The translations under genes and the position numbers were made by a program. Of a DNA stretch of 64,000 nt, positions 10,939-46,710 are shown piece by piece. The notes under the pieces were generated by a model, which saw only the letters and a program-made list of their open reading frames with translations, had not been told where the DNA came from and made no database searches. The first letter of the stretch is position 1; each line of letters begins with the position of its first letter. The stretch covers positions 1 to 64,000 of the forward strand of contig CBDAFS010000030.1 of NCBI GenBank assembly GCA_965195285.1, in the 5' to 3' direction. The stretch comes from an uncultured Aminicenantes bacterium (GTDB lineage: Bacteria > Acidobacteriota > Aminicenantia > UBA2199).

Positions 10939-11936
10939 TGATTATGCAGATGGAAAATTTTATATAATTTGTTGAACATTCTGAATACCACAGGTTTAAT
11001 AACGAACTCAATGGTTTTTATCAACTCTCGAGAAAACCCCAATTTGAATTTTGCAATATTTGGCAACCTTTTTGGTTCGACAATGCATAAATCATAATAA
11101 CAACACTCATTGTTTTTGGCCCACCTGATCGTTTCCCATTGGAGCAATTCTCCCTGCCCGAGATTGGGCACTTCTCCTTTACTGGCTCCCTGCCAGTAGT
11201 GCATCACATTTCGATTCCCAATTAAAACTAACCCGGCAATTGCCTGACCAGATTTTTCTGCTATGAAAATCGCTGCTTTCTTTTTTTTAAAATATAGATC
11301 AAATATTCTAAAATAATAATCTTTAGGCATACTTTTGAAACCAATACGTTGATGAGTATCGACCATTAACTTATAATAAATGTCAAAACCTTCAGGGCCA
11401 AATATTTTTATTTTTAATCCTGACTTCAAGGCTTTTCGAATCATATTTCTTCTTTTTGAGTGGATCACATCATTCCATATTGTTTGTTCTCGAAGAGAAA
11501 GATCAATAACAGCTGTTTGGCGGGGTATTGAATGATAATTGCTTATATTTTTATAATCATCTCCATGAATCTGTATATTGGAACAATAGGTTAAAGATTC
11601 ATTGGGTGATAACTTCATGTTCTTTATTAGTTCTTTTATATTTGTACGATTTTTGTTAAATACCCATCCTCCATAGGGAACCTCAAATGAAGTTGGATTT
11701 GAATAAGAAAATTTTAAAAATCCTCTTTTTAATGTGTGAACTGGACAAATCCCTATCATTTCACCATAACTATCATAAGCCAACAGATAATTGAACTGGC
11801 TCCCTGAAAACTCTGATACAATTTTGTTGAAGTCAGGTTCGTGAAAAACCAGACCGCAGTTTTTTTCAATAAACTCATTGATCGACTTTTGTTTTTCTTC
11901 TGTTAGATCGCTAATGGTTGTTCTTACAATTTTCAT
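10935..11936 (-). CDS. FemAB/FemX-like GNAT (acyl/aminoacyl transferase)
   Basis: IDLS..IW..IHSKRRNMIRKA, YWQGAS, LQWETIRWA, FKLGF. Confidence 0.8.
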   Translation of the reverse strand: MKIVRTTISDLTEEKQKSINEFIEKNCGLVFHEPDFNKIVSEFSGSQFNYLLAYDSYGEMIGICPVHTLKRGFLKFSYSNPTSFEVPYGGWVFNKNRTNIKELIKNMKLSPNESLTYCSNIQIHGDDYKNISNYHSIPRQTAVIDLSLREQTIWNDVIHSKRRNMIRKALKSGLKIKIFGPEGFDIYYKLMVDTHQRIGFKSMPKDYYFRIFDLYFKKKKAAIFIAEKSGQAIAGLVLIGNRNVMHYWQGASKGEVPNLGQGELLQWETIRWAKNNECCYYDLCIVEPKRLPNIAKFKLGFSRELIKTIEFVIKPVVFRMFNKLYKIFHLHNH

Positions 11937-26153: not shown

Positions 26154-26627
26154 TTATGCTCCTCTTTTGGGTATAAGTACATGACGTCTAAGTGTTAAAA
26201 CTTTATCATTTTTCTGATTATATGCTCTTGTTTCTACATAAACAATGCCACGATCAAGTTTGCTTTTTGATTCTCTTATAGACAGAATTTCTGTTTCTGT
26301 ATAAATTGTATCACCTACAAATACAGGACCATCATGGGTTACTTTTTCATAATCTAAATTAGCAATTGCCTTACCACTAATATCTCTAACAGTTAACCCA
26401 ACAACAAGGCTGAAAACCAATGTACCGACAACAAGAATTTTTCCATATTGTTGACTTTTACAATATTCTTTATCAAGGTGTAGTGGATGATGATTCATGG
26501 TTATTAATGAAAAAAGATTATTATCACTTTCAGTTATCGTTTTACCGGGCCAGTGTTTGTATAAATCACCTACTTTGAATTCATCAAGATATTGCCCAAA
26601 GTTTTTTTTCATATCATTTATGTTCAT
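26154..26627 (-). CDS. MaoC-family (R)-specific enoyl-CoA hydratase/dehydratase
   Basis: GKTITESDN..F...TMNHHPLHLD, PVFVGDTI, RGIV. Confidence 0.9.
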   Translation of the reverse strand: MNINDMKKNFGQYLDEFKVGDLYKHWPGKTITESDNNLFSLITMNHHPLHLDKEYCKSQQYGKILVVGTLVFSLVVGLTVRDISGKAIANLDYEKVTHDGPVFVGDTIYTETEILSIRESKSKLDRGIVYVETRAYNQKNDKVLTLRRHVLIPKRGA

Positions 26628-26773
26628 CTATCCTCCAAGAATAGATATTAAAAAAATAATATTTTTTAAAATGTAATAACATTATCCCAAGGAATCAATA
26701 AAAAAATTAAGCAGTGGGTGTTCAACATAAAAAGATCCATAACAAATTGTATAATGACCACTGTTAAAGAAAA

Positions 26774-27187
26774 TCAGGATTTCATTTTTTTATTAATAAG
26801 TCTAATGTTTATTAAATGAAAAATAATAAAGGCAAAAAGAACTCCAATAATATTGAATATGGAATCTATTATATTAAATCGTCTACCGGGAATAATTTGA
26901 TGATAAAACTCGATAAAAAAGGCAAAACCGATACCAATGATAAGAAATAAAATCAAGGACTGTAAATTTTGTTTGGGTTTGTCGTTTATAATCCATAATA
27001 AAAATAATATCGACAGGATAAAAAATTCAAGAAAGTGGATGAGATAGTCGAGACGGATGGTAGTACCTCCTGAAGTTTTGATCTTTGGAGTAGGAAGCTG
27101 GGGAAGAGAAGAAGCGATGAAGATGAGAATGAGCCAGGTGAAGAAGAGAAGTTTTGAGTTTTGTTTAATAAATTTGAGTAAGATCAT
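26774..27187 (-). CDS. VanZ-family membrane protein
   Basis: IFIASSLP, DYLIHFLEFFIL, E..Q..IPGR, D...N..G; start taken at ATG 27187 because the upstream codons are repeat-derived. Confidence 0.8.
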   Translation of the reverse strand: MILLKFIKQNSKLLFFTWLILIFIASSLPQLPTPKIKTSGGTTIRLDYLIHFLEFFILSILFLLWIINDKPKQNLQSLILFLIIGIGFAFFIEFYHQIIPGRRFNIIDSIFNIIGVLFAFIIFHLINIRLINKKMKS

Positions 27188-27196
27188 TTTATTAAC

Positions 27197-27420
27197 ATTG
27201 AATAATGAATATCGAATAACGAACACCGAATATCGAAGGAAAGAAATATCTTACAAACCTTGAAATTTAAACATCGAACAAAGAATAATAAATGTTGAAG
27301 GAAAAGAATCATCTTGAAAACATTGAATAATGAATATCGAATAACGAACACCGAATGTTGAAGGGAAAAAACATATTATTCATAGTGAATCATGAATATC
27401 GAATATCGAATAGCGAAGTG
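27197..27420 (+). repeat. Left arm: degenerate heptamer arrays (GAATATC/GAATAAC/GAACACC family) in about 60-nt blocks
   Basis: Visible tandem 7-mers; exact 38-nt direct repeat at 27194-27231 and 27319-27356. Confidence 0.9.
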
Positions 27421-27427
27421 AAAAGGC

Positions 27428-27799
27428 TCATTTTATATTATCATGTGCTGTTTTTATACTGGAAACAAAAATTGAAATCAGTTCATTGCATTCGAGTATA
27501 AGATCATCTACTTTATCGGAATGTTTAACAAGCGGTTTCCTTTTAATAATTTTCAGTGCAATGTATGTTTCTCTCAATTCCTTGAGTGCGATTTTCATTT
27601 TATGGATAAAATCTTTTCCGGACTCTGCACTCTGGGCCTCACCATATATTAAAGCAGGAGCAGTTCCGGACCTGATTATTTGACCTCCGATATAATTTCC
27701 ATTTCTTGTATTTGGCAACTGTTCAGCTAAACTTAATATATTAACAGAAAAAGAAATCAATCTTTCTTCCAAATCATATTTTTTTTTCTCATCAATCAT
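27428..27799 (-). CDS. Four-helix-bundle protein (TIGR02436 / 23S-IVP / Avd-like)
   Basis: DLEERL..F, QIIRSGTAPAL.YGEAQSAES.KDFIHK.KIALKELRET, E.NELISIF. Confidence 0.93.
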   Translation of the reverse strand: MIDEKKKYDLEERLISFSVNILSLAEQLPNTRNGNYIGGQIIRSGTAPALIYGEAQSAESGKDFIHKMKIALKELRETYIALKIIKRKPLVKHSDKVDDLILECNELISIFVSSIKTAHDNIK

Positions 27800-27932
27800 G
27801 CTTCAAAATTCATTATTCAATTTTTATCTTTTTACATTTCGTCATTCATTATTCATCATTCGATATTCGATATTCATTGGTTGATAATACTTCATCATTC
27901 CTTGTTCGACATTCGTTATTCGATATTCAAAA
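27800..27932 (-). repeat. Right arm: reverse-complement heptamer arrays (GATATTC/ATTATTC/GTTATTC)
   Basis: Inverted relative to 27197-27420. Confidence 0.9.
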
Positions 27933-27936
27933 CTTC

Positions 27937-30060
27937 TTATCTCTTGATTGAATCTTGCACGGCAAAAGTAGCCAGAGATGAAGCATAGAGTTCGTCGAAA
28001 GGAATGGGAGAGTGAGAACCGGTTTGGATGGCATTGAAGAAAGCCAATAATTCCTGTTGATGACCCCGATCCGGTCGTCTCAGCCTGAAAGAAGAGATTT
28101 TATTACCGTAAATCTTCATGGATTTGAAATCATTGATGGTCACCGATTGTCCGCTGCAGAAAATTTCCAAGTATTCGGCCGGCAACCGTCTATGTCCGTT
28201 GGAATAGTAGCTGATGGTGGCGATGCTGCCATTGTCAAAACCCAGGCTGATCACCAAGGTATCCTGAAGGTGAGCCGGATCTCTCAGGCTCTTGGCCGAA
28301 ATGGATGAGACCTCGCCACCGGACAGGAAGATGACCAGATCCACAAACTGACACACTTCACTGATGATTACCCCGCCACCGGTTTCGGGATCATGCACCC
28401 AATGGTCTTTGGGAAATTTTTCGCCATTGATCCGGTAATTGATAGCCTTTGGTTTTTCCGGAGGAAACAGTTCTTTTGCCTTTTGAATAAAGGGAGCAAA
28501 GCGGCGGTTAAAACCTGCCATCAGAACAGGAAGCGGCTGGCTGCGGTTGACCAATAGCCGGTGGGTTTCCCAGATGCGTTTCAGGTCATCCTTGGTCATG
28601 GCCAAAGGCTTTTCTACAAATACATGCTTGCTCATGGTCAGGGCCTTGACAACAAATTCCGCATGGAGATCGTTTCGGGTGGTGATAAATACCGTGTTGA
28701 TACGGTCATCGGCAATGATCTCATCGGCATTGCCGGTACTGTAGGCAAAGCCGTATTTGTCAGCTACCTGGCGGGCATTGTGGCTTCGGGCCGTAATCAC
28801 CCCCACCAGATTGCAGTGTTTCCGGATAAACGGTAAAATCGTTTTGCGGGCAAATCCTCCGGCACCGACAAATCCCACGGCCGGATCGACCGGGTCGGTT
28901 GGTTTTTCCTTTAAGGTTACTTTTTTGGAAAGTTCCTTTTCGCTGTCATAATCAATCACCACGCCGCAAAAAGGCTCGGACCGGCTGAGGATCATGGTGT
29001 AGATCTCCGGGGTATCCACCAGGGGAACCGTATGGGAAATCAATTGATCCACCTGTAATTTCTTATTATTCAACAATTCAATATAAGATTGCAGATTGCG
29101 GTTTTCGGTCCAGCGCACATAGCCGATGGGATAATCCTTTCCCCTTATTTCATAAAAGGGATCTTGGCTGCCGGGTCCGTAGCCGCAGGACATACGCAAA
29201 TCCAACTCTTTACGGAAATAGGGTTTACGGTCAAAACCGGTGGCTACTTTTCCGATCACCACCACTTTTCCTCGCTGGCGACACAATAGCCCGGCCAGAT
29301 TCACCGGATCGGTGGTGGTGGAATCCGCAGCGATAATGACCGCATCCACCCCGTTTCCCTGAGAAATTTCGGAAACGATGTTTTCCAATTCCGGATCAAG
29401 GAAATTCAGGGCAGTTATGGTTTTCAAGCCGGCCAACCCATTTACCCGGGCTTTATCACTGTCAACTCCTATCACATCCACGCCGGCTGCCTGCAATACC
29501 TGGATGACCAGCCGGCCGATCAACCCCAGTCCGATCACCACCGCCTTCTCGCTCAGGCGCAGATCAGCCTGGCGCACCCCCTGAATGGCAATAGCGGCAA
29601 TCCCCGCAAAGGCAGCCTGTTTCAAATCGTTTTTCCCGGGGATCTTCACACAGAGGTTCCGGTTGACTGCCACCACATCGGCATGCCATGCCCCTTTTCC
29701 TGCACAGGCCACTTGATCACCGATTTTGATGTCATTGACCTCGTTGCTGACCGCAATGACTTCTCCGGAGCAGCTGTTGCCCAGGGTGGAAGATGCTTCA
29801 AGCTTGTTCATGACCATACGGTAGGTATCGGCCAAACCGCTCTTCTTGATCTGTTCAATAACCTGACTGACCTCGTTTTTTCGGGATATGGCCCGGGCAA
29901 TATATCCCCCCCGGGCCGCCTTGACCATGTTGCCCTCTTCTCCGCCGCTGATTACCGAATAGTGGTTTCTCACCAACACCTGGCCCCGGCCTAATACCGG
30001 AAAGGGAACTTCCAGAATCCGTATGACACCCTTCATTTTTGTGTAAGTTAGTTGTTGCAC
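27937..30060 (-). CDS. Bi-domain oxidoreductase (Zn-ADH-like + Gfo/Idh/MocA)
   Basis: VIGLGLIG, S.GYGPG..D..YE..G.DYPIGYVRWTENRN, VGAGGF, HVFVEKPL, GFNRRFAP. Confidence 0.9.
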   Translation of the reverse strand: MQQLTYTKMKGVIRILEVPFPVLGRGQVLVRNHYSVISGGEEGNMVKAARGGYIARAISRKNEVSQVIEQIKKSGLADTYRMVMNKLEASSTLGNSCSGEVIAVSNEVNDIKIGDQVACAGKGAWHADVVAVNRNLCVKIPGKNDLKQAAFAGIAAIAIQGVRQADLRLSEKAVVIGLGLIGRLVIQVLQAAGVDVIGVDSDKARVNGLAGLKTITALNFLDPELENIVSEISQGNGVDAVIIAADSTTTDPVNLAGLLCRQRGKVVVIGKVATGFDRKPYFRKELDLRMSCGYGPGSQDPFYEIRGKDYPIGYVRWTENRNLQSYIELLNNKKLQVDQLISHTVPLVDTPEIYTMILSRSEPFCGVVIDYDSEKELSKKVTLKEKPTDPVDPAVGFVGAGGFARKTILPFIRKHCNLVGVITARSHNARQVADKYGFAYSTGNADEIIADDRINTVFITTRNDLHAEFVVKALTMSKHVFVEKPLAMTKDDLKRIWETHRLLVNRSQPLPVLMAGFNRRFAPFIQKAKELFPPEKPKAINYRINGEKFPKDHWVHDPETGGGVIISEVCQFVDLVIFLSGGEVSSISAKSLRDPAHLQDTLVISLGFDNGSIATISYYSNGHRRLPAEYLEIFCSGQSVTINDFKSMKIYGNKISSFRLRRPDRGHQQELLAFFNAIQTGSHSPIPFDELYASSLATFAVQDSIKR

Positions 30061-30080
30061 AGGTAATCTCTCATTTCTTT

Positions 30081-30150
30081 AGTAAGTAGTAGGTAGTAAA
30101 AAGTAGGTAGTAAGAAGTAGGTAGTAAGAAGTAAGTAGTAAGAAGTAAAA
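30081..30150 (+). repeat. Heptamer array (AGTAAGA/AGTAGGT) x10
   Basis: Ten consecutive AGTA-NNN units. Confidence 0.95.
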
Positions 30151-30177
30151 AAATAAACGATTTTCTGAAGACAATAT

Positions 30178-30567
30178 TTACTCCGTAATAATGCAAAACT
30201 TTTCAGGCTTATTTATCATTCCAAAAAGAATTCTTCCGAGTTCCTGATATTTTTCATACAATTTCGTATGCTTTTCTTCCTGAAGATATCCATGTTTGAA
30301 AGCAAAATCCAGCCATACTTCTGTCTCACTTGCTTCTCCGATCGAATCGGTTAATTTTAAAACAAAAGATTTCGGATATCTTCGCTTCGCCCATGCTTCA
30401 GTAATGTTAGCGGAAACAGATCGTGATGATCTTCTGATCTGATCAATTAAAGAATATTTTTCTTCTTTTGGAAAAGTTTTACTGATGTTGAAGATTTCAA
30501 CCGCTAGATCAAAACTCAACTGATATGCAATCAGATCTCTGTAACCCCGATACATAGTTTTTTCCAT
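30178..30567 (-). CDS. Four-helix-bundle protein (TIGR02436)
   Basis: YRDL.AYQ, FPKEEKYSLIDQIRRSSRSVSANI.EAW.KRRY, GEASETEVWL. Confidence 0.95.
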   Translation of the reverse strand: MEKTMYRGYRDLIAYQLSFDLAVEIFNISKTFPKEEKYSLIDQIRRSSRSVSANITEAWAKRRYPKSFVLKLTDSIGEASETEVWLDFAFKHGYLQEEKHTKLYEKYQELGRILFGMINKPEKFCIITE

Positions 30568-30571
30568 TATG

Positions 30572-30668
30572 TACTTCTCACTCCCTACTCCTTACTTCTT
30601 ACTTCTTACTTCTTACTTCTTACTCCTTACTTCTTATTGTTTTTTTTCTACTTACTATATACTACATA
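30572..30668 (-). repeat. Heptamer array (TACTTCT) x9 plus TACATAC-type units, inverted to 30081-30150
   Basis: Nine units at 30572-30634; further units run up to the epimerase stop codon. Confidence 0.95.
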
Positions 30669-31823
30669 CTAGATTTTATAAAATTCTTTATACCATTCCA
30701 CAAATTTTCGAATTCCCTCTTCCACCGGGGTATCCGGCCTGTATCCGGTATCCTTTTCAAGACTGGTGGTGTCAGCCCAGGTTTCCAACACATCGCCTTT
30801 TTGCAGGGGAAGGAAGTTTTTTTTGGCTTCTTTATTCATGGCCTTTTCAATAGCGGTGATGAATTCCATCAAGTTTACTGGTTTTCCTCTGCCAATGTTA
30901 TAGATTTTATACGGGGTGAGGAGCGAGAGGTCGGAGGTGAGGGGCTGGGAGTCTTCGAATGTCGAATGATGAATATCGAACGCCGAATTTCGAGTTTTTG
31001 ATTTTTGATTTACTTCTGAATTCGATATTCGGGATTCGTGATTCGGTGTTCGAAGATTGGGAGTTGGTGGTCTGTCCATAACCCGGGTGATGCCTTCGAT
31101 GATGTCATCGATATAGGTGAAATCCCGGCTCATCCGGCCCTGGTTGTAGACATCAATAGGCCGGTTTTTAATAATGGCCCTGACAAATTTAAAAGCCGCC
31201 ATGTCCGGCCGACCCCAGGGACCGTATACGGTAAAAAAACGAAGCCCGGTGGTGGGAATTTGGTAGAGGTGGCTGTAGGCATGGGCCATGAGCTCGCAGC
31301 TCTTCTTGCTAGCCGCATACAGAGACATGGGCTGGTCTACCATATCGGCCGTGGTAAAGGGCATTTTTTGGTTTAGGCCGTATACCGAAGAACTGGAAGC
31401 ATAGACCAGATGGTTGATCTCATGGTGGCGGCAGGCCTCCAGGATGTTCAGAAAACCTTGGATGTTGGAGTCCATATAAGCCTGGGGATTTTGCAAAGAA
31501 TAGCGCACCCCGGCCTGGGCTGCCAGGTGGCAGACCCGGTCGAATGGTTCTTGTTCGAACAGTTCGGTTATTTTTTCCCGATCCTCCAGGTTTAATTGGA
31601 TAAACCGGTAATTGTCAAGAGTCTGGCTTTCCACGGGGATTCCATACTGAATTTTCTCCGAATCGATTCCGGTGTCCTTCAGCCGGCCGTATTTCAGGTT
31701 GACATCATAGTAGTCATTGATATTGTCCAGGCCTATCAGCGTATGACCACTGTTTGCCATCTGTTTGACCAGGGAATGGCCGATGAATCCGGCGGTTCCA
31801 GTTATTAAGATCTTCAAGGTCAA
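30669..31823 (-). CDS. NAD-dependent epimerase (UDP-glucuronate 4-epimerase-like) with an in-frame repeat-derived insertion
   Basis: ITGTAGFIG, HLAAQAGVRYS, YAASKK, FFTVYGPWGRPDMA, RDFTYIDDI; TTG start with AGGAG RBS. Confidence 0.93.
   Translation of the reverse strand: MTLKILITGTAGFIGHSLVKQMANSGHTLIGLDNINDYYDVNLKYGRLKDTGIDSEKIQYGIPVESQTLDNYRFIQLNLEDREKITELFEQEPFDRVCHLAAQAGVRYSLQNPQAYMDSNIQGFLNILEACRHHEINHLVYASSSSVYGLNQKMPFTTADMVDQPMSLYAASKKSCELMAHAYSHLYQIPTTGLRFFTVYGPWGRPDMAAFKFVRAIIKNRPIDVYNQGRMSRDFTYIDDIIEGITRVMDRPPTPNLRTPNHESRISNSEVNQKSKTRNSAFDIHHSTFEDSQPLTSDLSLLTPYKIYNIGRGKPVNLMEFITAIEKAMNKEAKKNFLPLQKGDVLETWADTTSLEKDTGYRPDTPVEEGIRKFVEWYKEFYKI
30952..31056. mobile_element. 105-bp palindromic heptamer-repeat insertion inside the epimerase CDS
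   Basis: Ends TCTTCGAA...TTCGAAGA; arms of GAA-N4 7-mers; removal restores a GGAGTTG heptamer and keeps the frame. Confidence 0.8.
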
Positions 31824-31839
31824 GGTCTCCTTATATCAT

Positions 31840-31925
31840 AGGTTAAGGTTGAGGTTAAGGTAAAGAAAAAAACAGAAAATTTTTCCTGATTATCTCTCTT
31901 ATTCTTTTCCTTTATCTTTACCTCA
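31840..31925. repeat. Hexamer (AGGTTA/AGGTAA) array with inverted partner
   Basis: 31840-31865 versus 31909-31925. Confidence 0.7.
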
Positions 31926-32068
31926 GTCATCCAATCTTTCCTGCGGCCTTCGGCCGCCTGGGCTTCCGCCGGTACCCTTTTTCGGGGTTTACCGGGCCAA
32001 CCAAAAACAGGCTCAAACTCATCAATCTGGCTCATACTGATGATTTTCATTTATGGCTCAAGTCAGGA

Positions 32069-32106: not shown

Positions 32107-33075
32107 CTATCTTCTGAATTTTTTTAATTCCCGCTCAAATCCATCAATCATCAGTTTTATTTCATGGTTCTCAATGGATTCCAGCATAAAACGCCTTACC
32201 ATCTGGGAAACCGCCACATAATCCATTTCCACCAGTTCCCCGATCTCCCGCAGCCGCAGGTCACTGTATTTCTTCAAACCATACAGGAACAGCTTTCGGA
32301 AGTGGTTGTTTTTGCGCTTTTTGTACAGCAGCTCTCTTTTAACCCTGAAGCGCCGGCATATGATGCGGGAGATATCTTCGGGTTGGAGCCGCCTCAGACT
32401 CTTCAGGGCCGGTTTTTCCCGGATCTCTCCCATTCTCAGGTCAGCCTCTATCTTGCGGGCAATCTTTCGGCGAAATTTTTCACCGCCTACGATCGACTGC
32501 ACCCCGTAGAAATCTTCTTTTTTTATCCCCTCATCCTGATTCAGCAGGTCATAGACATACTTGCGGTAAAATTTCTTTTTGTTATTAAATTCGCTCAGGA
32601 GTTCGGCGGTGACCAGCCATAGCGGCCGTTTTTCTCTGCCGATGTAGCGGGCAAAACTGCTCCAGGGGTAATCTTCGGGTTTTTTAACCTTACCCTCCCG
32701 CAACGGGGTCAGGTGGATGTAAGCGCTCAACCTCATCAAATAACCGTTTTTTTCCACCAGAACGGCCCGGTAGCGGCCCTGGAAAACCGAGCCCTTGACC
32801 CCGTACTTGAGCTTGAACCAGTTTGAGTAGCTGGAGTTTAAATGGTGCATACAGCGGGAGAGATTGCCCTCCGGGGTTTCGATGAGCATGTGGAAACGAT
32901 CGTCCAGAAGGGTATAGCAGTGGACCTTGAGGTTGAACTTATCCACCACCTCGCCGGTTTTTTCCAGGAATTTCAGCCGGTCAACCTTTTCATGAAAAAT
33001 CTTCTCATGCTTGTCTCCCTGGGACATCACATGGTAACAGGCGCCCTTGTACTCTATACGGGGTTGTCGAGCCAT
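32107..33075 (-). CDS. REP-associated tyrosine transposase (RAYT, Y1_Tnp) with C-terminal DnaA_C-like HTH; HUH motif degenerate
   Basis: MARQPRI, YHV, G.VFQGRY, YIHL.P, YPWSS; C-terminal LREIGE...DYVAVS; RFH replaces HxH. Confidence 0.88.
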   Translation of the reverse strand: MARQPRIEYKGACYHVMSQGDKHEKIFHEKVDRLKFLEKTGEVVDKFNLKVHCYTLLDDRFHMLIETPEGNLSRCMHHLNSSYSNWFKLKYGVKGSVFQGRYRAVLVEKNGYLMRLSAYIHLTPLREGKVKKPEDYPWSSFARYIGREKRPLWLVTAELLSEFNNKKKFYRKYVYDLLNQDEGIKKEDFYGVQSIVGGEKFRRKIARKIEADLRMGEIREKPALKSLRRLQPEDISRIICRRFRVKRELLYKKRKNNHFRKLFLYGLKKYSDLRLREIGELVEMDYVAVSQMVRRFMLESIENHEIKLMIDGFERELKKFRR

Positions 33076-35661: not shown

Positions 35662-36172
35662 GTTAAGGTAAAGGTAAAGGTTGAGGTTAAGGTTAAGAAA
35701 AAAAATAAAACTATTAAAACCTCCTTAATTTTCATATCTCTTTACCTTTACCTTTGCCTCAACCTTAGAATTAAGAAGTCAGGAGATAGAAATCCGAAAT
35801 CCCAAATTCTAAATCCGAAACAAAGAGATTATTAATAAACATTGAATGATGAACACCAAATATTGAATGATGAATATCGAATAACGAACACCGAATATCG
35901 AAGGAAAGAAATATCTTACAAACCTTGAAATTTGAACATTGAACAAAGAATATCGAATGTCGAAGGAAAATAATCATCTTAATTAACAGTGAATGATGAT
36001 CACCGAATGTCGAATCATGAATGTCAAAGTGAAAGATTCATTTTTTTTTACACTTCATCATTCCTTGTTCGTTATTCATTATTCGAAATTCAAAATTAAA
36101 TACTATTTTCCTTTACCTTAACTTTTGCCTTTACCTTTACCTTTACCTTTACCTCTACCTTTACCTTTGCCT
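35660..36172. repeat. Intergenic repeat mosaic: hexamer hairpin, AAATCCG heptamers, gene-less four-helix-bundle cassette, hexamer array
   Basis: Modules at 35660-35767, 35790-35824, 35841-36095 and 36110-36172 fill almost the whole space between two convergent stop codons. Confidence 0.88.
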
Positions 36173-42184: not shown

Positions 42185-42310
42185 CTCGATTCTCCTCGTT
42201 TGACTTGGTTATACCACATTTCTCTCAACAAAAAAAAGTCTGTCATTCATGGTTTGACATCTCCGGGAGTTTGGTCGGACAAGGAGTCCGGATTGGACAG
42301 AGGGAAATGA

Positions 42311-42695
42311 AGGTTTAGGTTAAGGTAAAGGTAAAGGTAGAGGTAAAGGTAAAGGTAAAGACGTGAAACGTAAAGAGTAAAAGGTGAAGACGTAAGGCGT
42401 AATACGTAAAGCGTAAAATGTGATTGGTAATTGGTTAACTGTAGGGGCGAATGGAAATTCGCCCAATTGTTTATATCGATTTTTCATATTGGTTGTAATA
42501 ATCATCTCTTTCAGGGCAAACCGCCGTTTGCCCCTACAACAATTTTTCTCCTAATCTAAATTTGTTTTTGTTTTGAATTTTGGACATTTGAGTTTTGAAT
42601 TTGTTTCGGATTTAGAATTTGGGATTTCGGATTTGTTTCTTCTGGATTCTTACTTCTGAGTTAAAGGCAAAGGTAAAGGTAGAGGTAAAGGTAAA
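42311..42695. repeat. Intergenic repeat mosaic with GTAG REP doublet
   Basis: Hexamers 42311-42360, CGTAA heptamers 42361-42417, REPs 42441-42464 and 42514-42537, heptamers 42600-42634, hexamers 42664-42695. Confidence 0.88.
42441..42537. mobile_element. REPIN-like doublet of GTAG-family REPs
   Basis: GTAGGGGCGAATGGAAATTCGCCC ... GGGCAAACCGCCGTTTGCCCCTAC. Confidence 0.85.
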
Positions 42696-46479: not shown

Positions 46480-46699
46480 AGGTTAAGGTAGAGGTTAAGG
46501 TTAAGAAAAAAATTGTTGTAGGGGCAAACGGTGGTTTGCCCGAATCAGAAATCTATTACAAATTGATCAAAAAAGAATAGGGCGAATTTCCATTCGCCCC
46601 TACAGTTAACCAATTACTAATCACATTTTACGCTTTACGTATTACGCCTTACGTCTTTTCCTTTACCTCTACCTTTAACTTTACCTTCACCTTAACCTC
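46480..46699. mobile_element. REPIN-like doublet (46518-46603) nested between inverted hexamer arrays; inverted copy of 42387-42545
   Basis: 46580-46657 is the reverse complement of 42387-42464 with one mismatch. Confidence 0.88.
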
Positions 46700-46710
46700 A
46701 GTTTATTTTC

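Follow-up and report, generated by a model that had tools for sequence, protein, structure and literature searches.

Introduction

The four-helix-bundle proteins of PF05635/TIGR02436 make up a very large family with two solved structures, for which, to our knowledge, no function has been known since the 1990s. Tandem repeats of 7-mers are, for their part, familiar as the STRR heptamers of cyanobacteria. Both subjects meet in the locus described here, and its closest described relatives are the ORF-bearing intervening sequences (IVSs) of 23S rRNA and the DGR accessory protein Avd.

One account of 23S rRNA IVSs (PMC4990558) places ORF-bearing examples in Coxiella burnetii (helix 45), Leptospira, Xanthomonas and Brucella, and gives the suggestion that IVSs are remnants of a mobile element; the stem of the C. 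burnetii IVS comprises 28 bp with one mismatch and one bulge, and RNase III cuts the stem of this ORF-bearing IVS. Avd is described, in a preprint (bioRxiv 10.1101/2023.10.23.563531), as a positively charged pentamer like the S23 proteins; in the DGR RNA, distal segments upstream and downstream of the template pair with each other and loop the template out, and Avd binds a stem-loop. TAACTGA-type tandem heptamer repeats have been reported from Cyanobacteria, Beggiatoaceae and Bacteroidetes (PMC4679880), in a paper that makes no mention of the four-helix or S23 family.

We analysed a stretch of 64,000 nucleotides (the window) from an uncultured Aminicenantes bacterium, in which a small gene of this family lies between two inverted repeat arms in an operon spacer. 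We show that this unit, cassette 1, is one member of a class that occurs across phyla.

Results

A four-helix-bundle gene and two repeat arms fill an operon spacer

The window is part of contig C30. The draft genome amounts to 3.28 Mb in 62 contigs and is 95% complete. Cassette 1 and the genes on either side of it are arranged as follows, 5' and 3' arms being named in the sense of the small gene:

27937..30060, (-) strand: upstream host gene, a 707-aa fused ADH-like / GFO-IDH-MocA oxidoreductase; stop codon 27937-27939
27800..27932, (-) strand: 5' arm, with three purine-rich blocks of GAATATC-type 7-mers (~27890-27932, 27838-27879 and 27802-27827)
27428..27799, (-) strand: four-helix-bundle protein gene, 123 aa, pI 8.6
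27197..27420, (-) strand: 3' arm, with blocks that are pyrimidine-rich in the sense strand and complementary to the 5' arm
26774..27187, (-) strand: downstream host gene of the VanZ family; likely start ATG at 27187, the listed GTG at 27226 falling within the 3' arm

The 749-nt spacer between the oxidoreductase and VanZ genes is taken up by the 123-aa ORF and the two repeat regions, and cassette 1, co-directional with the surrounding sugar/envelope operon, fills the gap exactly: the 5' arm starts 5 nt past the oxidoreductase stop codon and ends at the ATG of the ORF, and the 3' arm, in which a ~125-nt unit is repeated twice, stops 10 nt short of the likely VanZ ATG. Neither a promoter nor a terminator signal belonging to the cassette itself is conspicuous. 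Scans of 26600-30800 returned 14 promoter-like sites vs. 9.7 ± 3.0 for a sigma-70 pattern that may not be the host's type, and 6 terminator-like sites vs. 4.2 ± 2.3, none of them inside the cassette. Independent public-run contigs span 27327-28612 with a single difference, and among the public runs no RNA run was listed for 26700-30700.

The assignment of the small gene to the IVS family, made by eye in the first-pass annotation, is borne out by profile matches to TIGR02436 (73.4 bits, cut-off 24) and PF05635 (41.7 bits, cut-off 33.8). An AlphaFold (AF2) model built from 17 aligned sequences (pLDDT 92.5) has four helices (residues 10-26, 32-56, 61-87 and 94-122); its closest structures in a Foldseek search were 2RLD (TMq 0.79-0.81) and 2GSC (0.76-0.81), five chains each, followed by the DGR protein Avd (4DWL, 0.69), in keeping with the structural kinship to Avd that had been proposed. 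The profile of A1 likewise matched 2gsc (3e-31) and 2rld (6e-31). The ORF is unbroken and of equal length here and in the related genome G003, with a dN/dS of 0.71 between the two copies (6.5 synonymous and 18.5 non-synonymous differences) vs. 0.14 for the neighbouring enzyme gene; the protein is thus only weakly constrained at this site.

The arms of cassette 1 are predicted to pair into a long stem

The arms had been read as heptamers on one side with their reverse complements on the other. The inversion is real: a repeat search of the flanks returned 37 inverted pairs, of which the longest measures 58 nt (74%) and the best exact match covers 20/20 positions (27392-27411 with 27858-27877). 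The arms are not simple heptamer runs, since they consist of about three blocks per side and are unequal in length (~224 vs. ~133 nt); a 23-nt GAATATC-type block occurs 8 times in register in the low-coordinate flank (27183-27420), and its reverse-complement counterpart 6 times in the high-coordinate flank (27800-27932).

Folding of the sense RNA of 27180-27940 gave -177.3 kcal/mol vs. -149.6 ± 6.6 for shuffled sequences (n = 20; z = -4.2; none of the 20 as good). The predicted fold supports the long stem with looped-out ORF that had been proposed: it contains 115 arm-to-arm pairs in six helices (3, 19, 22, 6, 47 and 18 bp), 13 of these pairs being G·U, with an ensemble expectation of 105.6 arm-to-arm pairs. 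The distance from its outermost pair is 2-3 nt to the oxidoreductase stop codon and 13 nt to the VanZ AUG, and the AUG of the cassette-1 gene itself is paired in the minimum-free-energy (MFE) fold. The antisense strand folds about as well (-160.3 kcal/mol, z = -4.3), and duplex energies of cognate arms showed no consistent sense-strand advantage. With an arm score of 41, the cognate arms of cassette 1 outscore all 30 non-cognate partners tried.

All six family members of the genome carry inverted arms of different sequence

The genome holds six genes of the family, and every one of them lies between a tandem 7-mer array on its upstream side and the reverse complement of that array on its downstream side. 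The units differ in all six cassettes (GAAGATA, TAAGTTC, GTAAGAA, GAAGATG, GTTTACT and GAATATC). All six lie between protein-coding ORFs, none in rRNA, and all are co-oriented with their neighbours; four of the genes sit within one capsule/exopolysaccharide operon on contig C42 (Wzy_C, CpsB, Bac_transf, Epimerase_2; single strand). A second cassette lies in the window, close to the first:

30572..30640, (-) strand: 5' arm of the second cassette, GTAAGAA-type units
30178..30567, (-) strand: four-helix-bundle gene of the second cassette, 129 aa; TIGR02436 106.6 bits, PF05635 112.1 bits
30080..30152, (-) strand: 3' arm of the second cassette, from which 14 nt or 7 nt are missing in other strains

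In other public-run contigs the 3' arm of this second cassette lacks 14 nt (X2) or 7 nt (X5), at 30101 and 30116, with no compensating change in the 5' arm reported within the part that these contigs cover. Judged from these contigs, the difference is a unit-number polymorphism between strains.

Strict lag-7 arrays number 36 in the genome, vs. 6 of period 8 and 1 of period 9, and they cluster on contigs C30, C41 and C42. Two further occurrences of heptamers may be recorded here. A run of about 10 AGTAGGA-type heptamers (G000:C15:62296-62375) begins ~10 nt past the apparent 3' end of a tRNA gene, with no four-helix gene nearby. On contig C42 (G000:C42:23517-23770; L131 ~11518-11771), a 541-aa ORF for a Wzy_C (O-antigen ligase-like) protein stays open across four different arrays (GGTTCAA, GAAATTC, GAAGATA and CTCAAAA types) close to the N-terminus, which are apparently translated.

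The gene-plus-arms layout recurs across phyla

Family members were present in 21 of 31 related genomes, this one included, and the 20 loci taken from relatives show the gene-plus-arms layout in most cases. A degenerate-pattern scan of 185,579 species genomes, queried with a 5-sequence alignment, yielded 585 confirmed relatives from 601 candidate stretches; we kept the best 80 of the 585, a set biased towards a subfamily other than that of cassette 1. These best 80 loci come from Acidobacteriota, Bacteroidota, Planctomycetota, Verrucomicrobiota, Chloroflexota, Nitrospirota, Cyanobacteria, Patescibacteria, Firmicutes and other phyla. The pooled set comprised 101 cassettes (6 from this genome, 20 from relatives and 75 from the many-phyla scan) and leaves out L068, L069 and L089 (short flanks), L055 and L107 (without a start codon), L019 (internal stop), and matches in relatives for which no locus was issued.

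In this set the arms are systematically inverted: the median inverted-arm score is 18 vs. 10 for the direct orientation, with inversion scoring higher in 81 of 101 cassettes, and the cognate arms score above the 95th percentile of the non-cognate pairings in 67/101 and above the 99th in 42/101. Among the 73 cassettes scoring at least 14, the best period is 7 nt in 42, 8 in 16, 9 in 8, 10 in 4, 6 in 2 and 11 in 1. The 7-nt period might have served to place stop codons in all three frames; such stops occur in 26/73 5' arms vs. 16.1 expected after shuffling, a weak excess, and in 10/73 3' arms.

The arms have a fixed polarity. The purine-rich side is the 5' arm in 67 of 71 cassettes (2 ties), and the arms are therefore tied to gene direction; 5' arms have a purine content of at least 65% in 48/73 and of at most 35% in none of the 73, and they contain GGAG-like words in 33/73 and CTCC-like words in 0/73. 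A median of 16 nt separates the 5' arm from the ATG. This polarity points to a putative role at the transcript level, or at least to an arm that doubles as a translation leader; the need for a ribosome-binding leader could by itself account for the purine bias. Neighbouring genes lie on the same strand upstream in 79/94 and downstream in 91/101 cassettes, by crude ORF calls without a matched control. The proteins are basic (median pI 9.07; pI > 8 in 69/91).

Base-pair composition bears on the level at which the arms are kept complementary. In 73 arm pairs with 2357 Watson-Crick columns, the mismatches comprised 277 transversions, 106 G·U pairs in the sense strand and 122 in the antisense strand, so that the excess of sense-strand G·U pairs that would mark RNA-level selection is absent from these pairs. 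Given this and the similar folding of the antisense strand, complementarity looks generated or refreshed at the DNA level: the arms look copied as DNA, and not kept by selection on the sense RNA. Such an origin is still compatible with RNase III cleavage, because the proven Coxiella IVS stem is also nearly all Watson-Crick.

At L029 (G021:C22; cassette at 1462-1788 of the reverse-complemented locus), a 670-codon methylase-like host frame stays open across both arms and the four-helix gene, which lies in another frame than the host; the alternating arm unit lengths put stop codons in only two of the three frames. At L008 (G026:C32) and G017:C12:77830-78144, the four-helix domain closes open frames of far greater length (436 and 429 codons), which may represent fusions or read-through across the 5' arm.

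The unit is gained, lost and transferred with its arms

The site after the orthologous oxidoreductase is variably filled. In G003, whose enzyme is 94% identical, it holds this same cassette, with a single short block in each arm; in G022 it holds a different family member; in G002, heptamer arrays without an ORF; and in G010, G020 and G025, no insert. The gene is therefore not a constant part of this locus, and the empty and otherwise filled sites agree with the mobile-cassette behaviour proposed in the first-pass annotation.

Arm sequence follows protein sequence. Arm 6-mers are common to 12 of 13 cassette pairs at 70% protein identity or more vs. 23% of pairs at 30-50%, and only 2 of 300 label permutations gave as high an arm/protein correlation, cross-phylum pairs included; a Nitrospirota MAG and a Nostoc MAG have arms in common at 78% protein identity. 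The transferred unit would thus seem to include the arms; the cross-phylum cases say so, though kinship inflates such counts.

Contig joints that skip the ORF (27315>27889, 27362>27890 and 27363>27889, in four runs) were considered as signs of excision at this site, a reading we rejected as the flanks beyond the joints are not known; most simply, they come from ORF-less copies elsewhere or in other organisms.

In two relatives, cassettes adjoin CRISPR-type repeats. At L011 (G021:C17) the cassette follows the last of 17 repeats of 37 nt, and at L017/L034 (G028:C7) cassettes lie between repeats spaced 66-68 nt; a partial repeat forms the bound in both. A large CRISPR survey (PMC10910872) names '23S rRNA IVP' among novel associations of adaptation modules. 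Cassette insertion into CRISPR arrays could produce the family's CRISPR-association signal in large surveys.

ORF-less derivatives occur at other loci and inside a gene

Three derivatives without an ORF lie in the window:

35860..36095, (+) strand: ORF-less copy of the cassette-1 arm blocks, 119 nt at 93% identity to 27197-27315
31840..31925, (-) strand: ORF-less hairpin with AGGTAAA-type arms, upstream of the epimerase gene
30930..31050, (-) strand: small GAATATC-type hairpin, translated in frame within the epimerase gene 30669-31823

Further ORF-less copies of the cassette-1 arms are found at C42:660-780, C39:117560-117720 and C15:132240-132330, making at least four in the genome. One loop is common to all four copies; on one side it retains the end of the ORF, with its last codons and stop, and on the other the junction before the outermost 5' block. 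The copies therefore look like those of a single internal-deletion derivative. Three of the four share a composite setting of other heptamer arrays, with AAATCCG upstream and the CTTTACC type downstream.

In the congener G001, the position of the hairpin at 31840-31925 is taken by a complete cassette whose arms are of the same type, and leader and spacer sequence on either side of the site is conserved between the two genomes. The epimerase insert at 30930-31050 adds ~30 aa and is absent from four family-level relatives; the epimerase of a congener has a different repeat-encoded insert in the same loop. This one organism offers a small natural series, with a full cassette, copies that lack the ORF and a remnant translated in frame within a gene.

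An ops-like motif, CGGCGG[TCA]AGC, occurs in the operon leader at 31962-31970 (-), ~45 nt upstream of the ORF-less hairpin. Such motifs lie upstream of 5 of the 101 cassettes, three of these in relatives (L016, L031 and L032) at 80-91 nt, and the loose pattern occurs 60 times in the genome vs. ~34 expected; operons with an ops-like leader could use antitermination of the NusG/RfaH type, as rRNA operons use their own system. Elsewhere, arrays of AGGTAAA-, ACGTAAA- and GGTAATT-type heptamers, layered in this order and with a GC-rich hairpin end on each side, form an inverted mosaic (42300-42470 and 46575-46700) whose mirrored layers bracket 4.1 kb with the genes for a SpoIIE-type phosphatase and a TonB-dependent receptor.

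Discussion

Our results establish that cassette 1 is a member of a widespread unit: a basic four-helix-bundle gene of the IVS family inside inverted arrays of short tandem repeats. Genome comparisons show that the arms and the gene are inherited and transferred together, and that the unit is present, absent or replaced at one and the same site and decays to ORF-less hairpins, which occur at further sites. In a literature search outside subscription journals, we found no printed description of such a gene-plus-arms class. New here are the polarity of the 5' arm, arms that move with the protein, the lack of a sense G·U excess and the length variation by 7/14 nt, as well as the ORF-less copies (at least four) with one common internal deletion and an orthologous site that is filled, empty or otherwise filled.

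The resemblance to ORF-bearing 23S rRNA IVSs extends to several features: a loop coding for a protein of this same family; a stem formed by complementary termini; carriage on a longer host RNA, as is likely for cassette 1; sporadic distribution and suspected selfishness; ORF-less forms on both sides; and a gene that is weakly constrained or decaying in both. The differences lie in the host, which for cassette 1 is an mRNA operon spacer and not an rRNA helix, and in the arms, which are long multi-block tandem 7-mer arrays (~115 pairs) as opposed to a 28-bp stem; RNase III cleavage, proven for the IVS, would apply to cassette 1 by analogy, and the genome does encode RNase III (236 bits, cut-off 166). 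With Avd, the cassette-1 protein shares the four-helix-bundle fold and a basic character. We rejected an identity as the Avd component of a DGR: a search of the 95%-complete genome found no reverse transcriptase (PF00078), no TR/VR pair was seen, and the Avd/bAvd models were not matched by the cassette-1 protein and gave scores below their cut-offs for that of the second cassette.

Two repeat systems call for comparison as well. Like REP/REPIN-RAYT systems and MITEs, the cassettes include dispersed short palindromic hairpins between genes and gene-less copies derived from a gene-bearing one by internal deletion; unlike REPIN/RAYT, they carry a gene that is no transposase, and their arm sequence differs from cassette to cassette. 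The window contains a RAYT-like gene (32107-33075, (-) strand), which encodes a 322-aa Y1_Tnp (IS200-like) protein with a DnaA C-terminal HTH and matches NF047646 (REP-associated tyrosine transposase) at 61.8 bits, below the cut-off of 80; the protein has 18 matches in the genome (26-49% identity). A link between this gene and the cassettes was considered and rejected, since its paralogues carry inverted repeats of their own and not heptamers: among 14 of 15 Y1_Tnp+DnaA_C paralogues examined (one flank was too short), most have other inverted repeats of ~20-45 nt, many of them G-rich, and none adjoins a strong lag-7 array. The cassettes share with the heptamer repeats of Cyanobacteria, Beggiatoaceae and Bacteroidetes their intergenic tandem 7-mers, often 5' of start codons and sometimes translated in ORFs, and their patchiness across phyla; those heptamers, unlike the cassettes, are direct repeats of one unit without a partner array or an associated gene.

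By analogy with the rRNA systems, we give about an even chance to the reading that cassette 1 is a selfish cassette of the IVS type that rides on the transcript of the operon, where its stem acts. Cassette 1 would be transcribed by read-through within the operon mRNA, and its purine-rich 5' arm and pyrimidine-rich 3' arm would form an interrupted stem of ~115 bp that draws the oxidoreductase stop codon and the VanZ start together and hides the cassette's own start region. The stem is probably an RNase III substrate and would be cut as in ORF-bearing 23S rRNA IVSs; a stem that bridges stop and start and is open to RNase III would make the insert do little harm to the operon. As tandem repeats, the arms would pair in any register after slippage, and this preservation of pairing may be a reason for the tandem-repeat design. 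The basic, pentamer-type protein would probably bind the paired arms, as Avd binds RNA with pairing flanks.

The strand symmetry of the arms counts against a stem maintained purely as RNA, and it agrees with an account in which the arms serve as single-stranded or cruciform DNA, a substrate on which a host or trans-acting enzyme inserts, excises or copies the element, the RNA stem being a by-product. Presence and absence at one site, ORF-less copies with the same internal deletion at different loci (as MITEs arise from a full element), strain arms that differ by whole units at 30101 and 30116, and hairpins even within coding genes all fit this account. Against these observations must be set the cassette's lack of a recombinase or transposase, arm sequences that differ per cassette and leave no shared recognition site evident, and the many RAYT-like Y1 transposase genes of the genome, which are flanked by other inverted repeats; nor is there an obvious DNA-level reason for the link between arm polarity and gene direction (67/71). 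We regard the DNA-level account as rather unlikely.

The same polarity, with 5' arms close to the start codon and often containing GGAG-like words, and the paired AUG of the MFE fold would also suit a translational or regulatory module, in which the 5' purine units bind the four-helix protein, S1 or a CsrA/Csp-type factor and set translation of the cassette or the next gene, and pairing with the 3' arm is the off-switch. We consider such a module improbable, because it leaves unexplained the complementary downstream array, the gain and loss of the whole unit and the ORF-less copies between convergent genes, and because the units vary widely among related proteins. That the pattern merely reflects chance in a low-complexity AT-rich spacer, or an assembly artefact, might be suggested by the repetitive, AT-rich region and a draft genome of 62 contigs; the fold z-score, the superiority of the cognate arms over every non-cognate partner tried, the recurrence of the architecture at all six genes here and across phyla, the agreement of independent contigs and the same arm type at the G003 orthologue make this explanation scarcely credible.

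Extending the IVS-type selfish reading, one may picture the cassettes as the free-living form of ORF-bearing rRNA IVSs: selfish elements found domain-wide within long transcripts of their hosts (mRNAs of operons, rRNA, or CRISPR arrays in two relatives), whose four-helix pentamer would bind its own arm duplex as Avd does the DGR flanks, with the RNA-protein particle as a processing or mobility intermediate, and whose worn-down arms would largely make up the orphan heptamer arrays of Cyanobacteria, Beggiatoaceae and Bacteroidetes. This wider picture is speculative, and we think it unlikely in its entirety.

In conclusion, the gene-plus-arms layout, fixed across phyla, provides a handle on the function of the PF05635/TIGR02436 family and on the origin of rRNA IVSs, and the cassettes offer a source for unexplained intergenic heptamer arrays.
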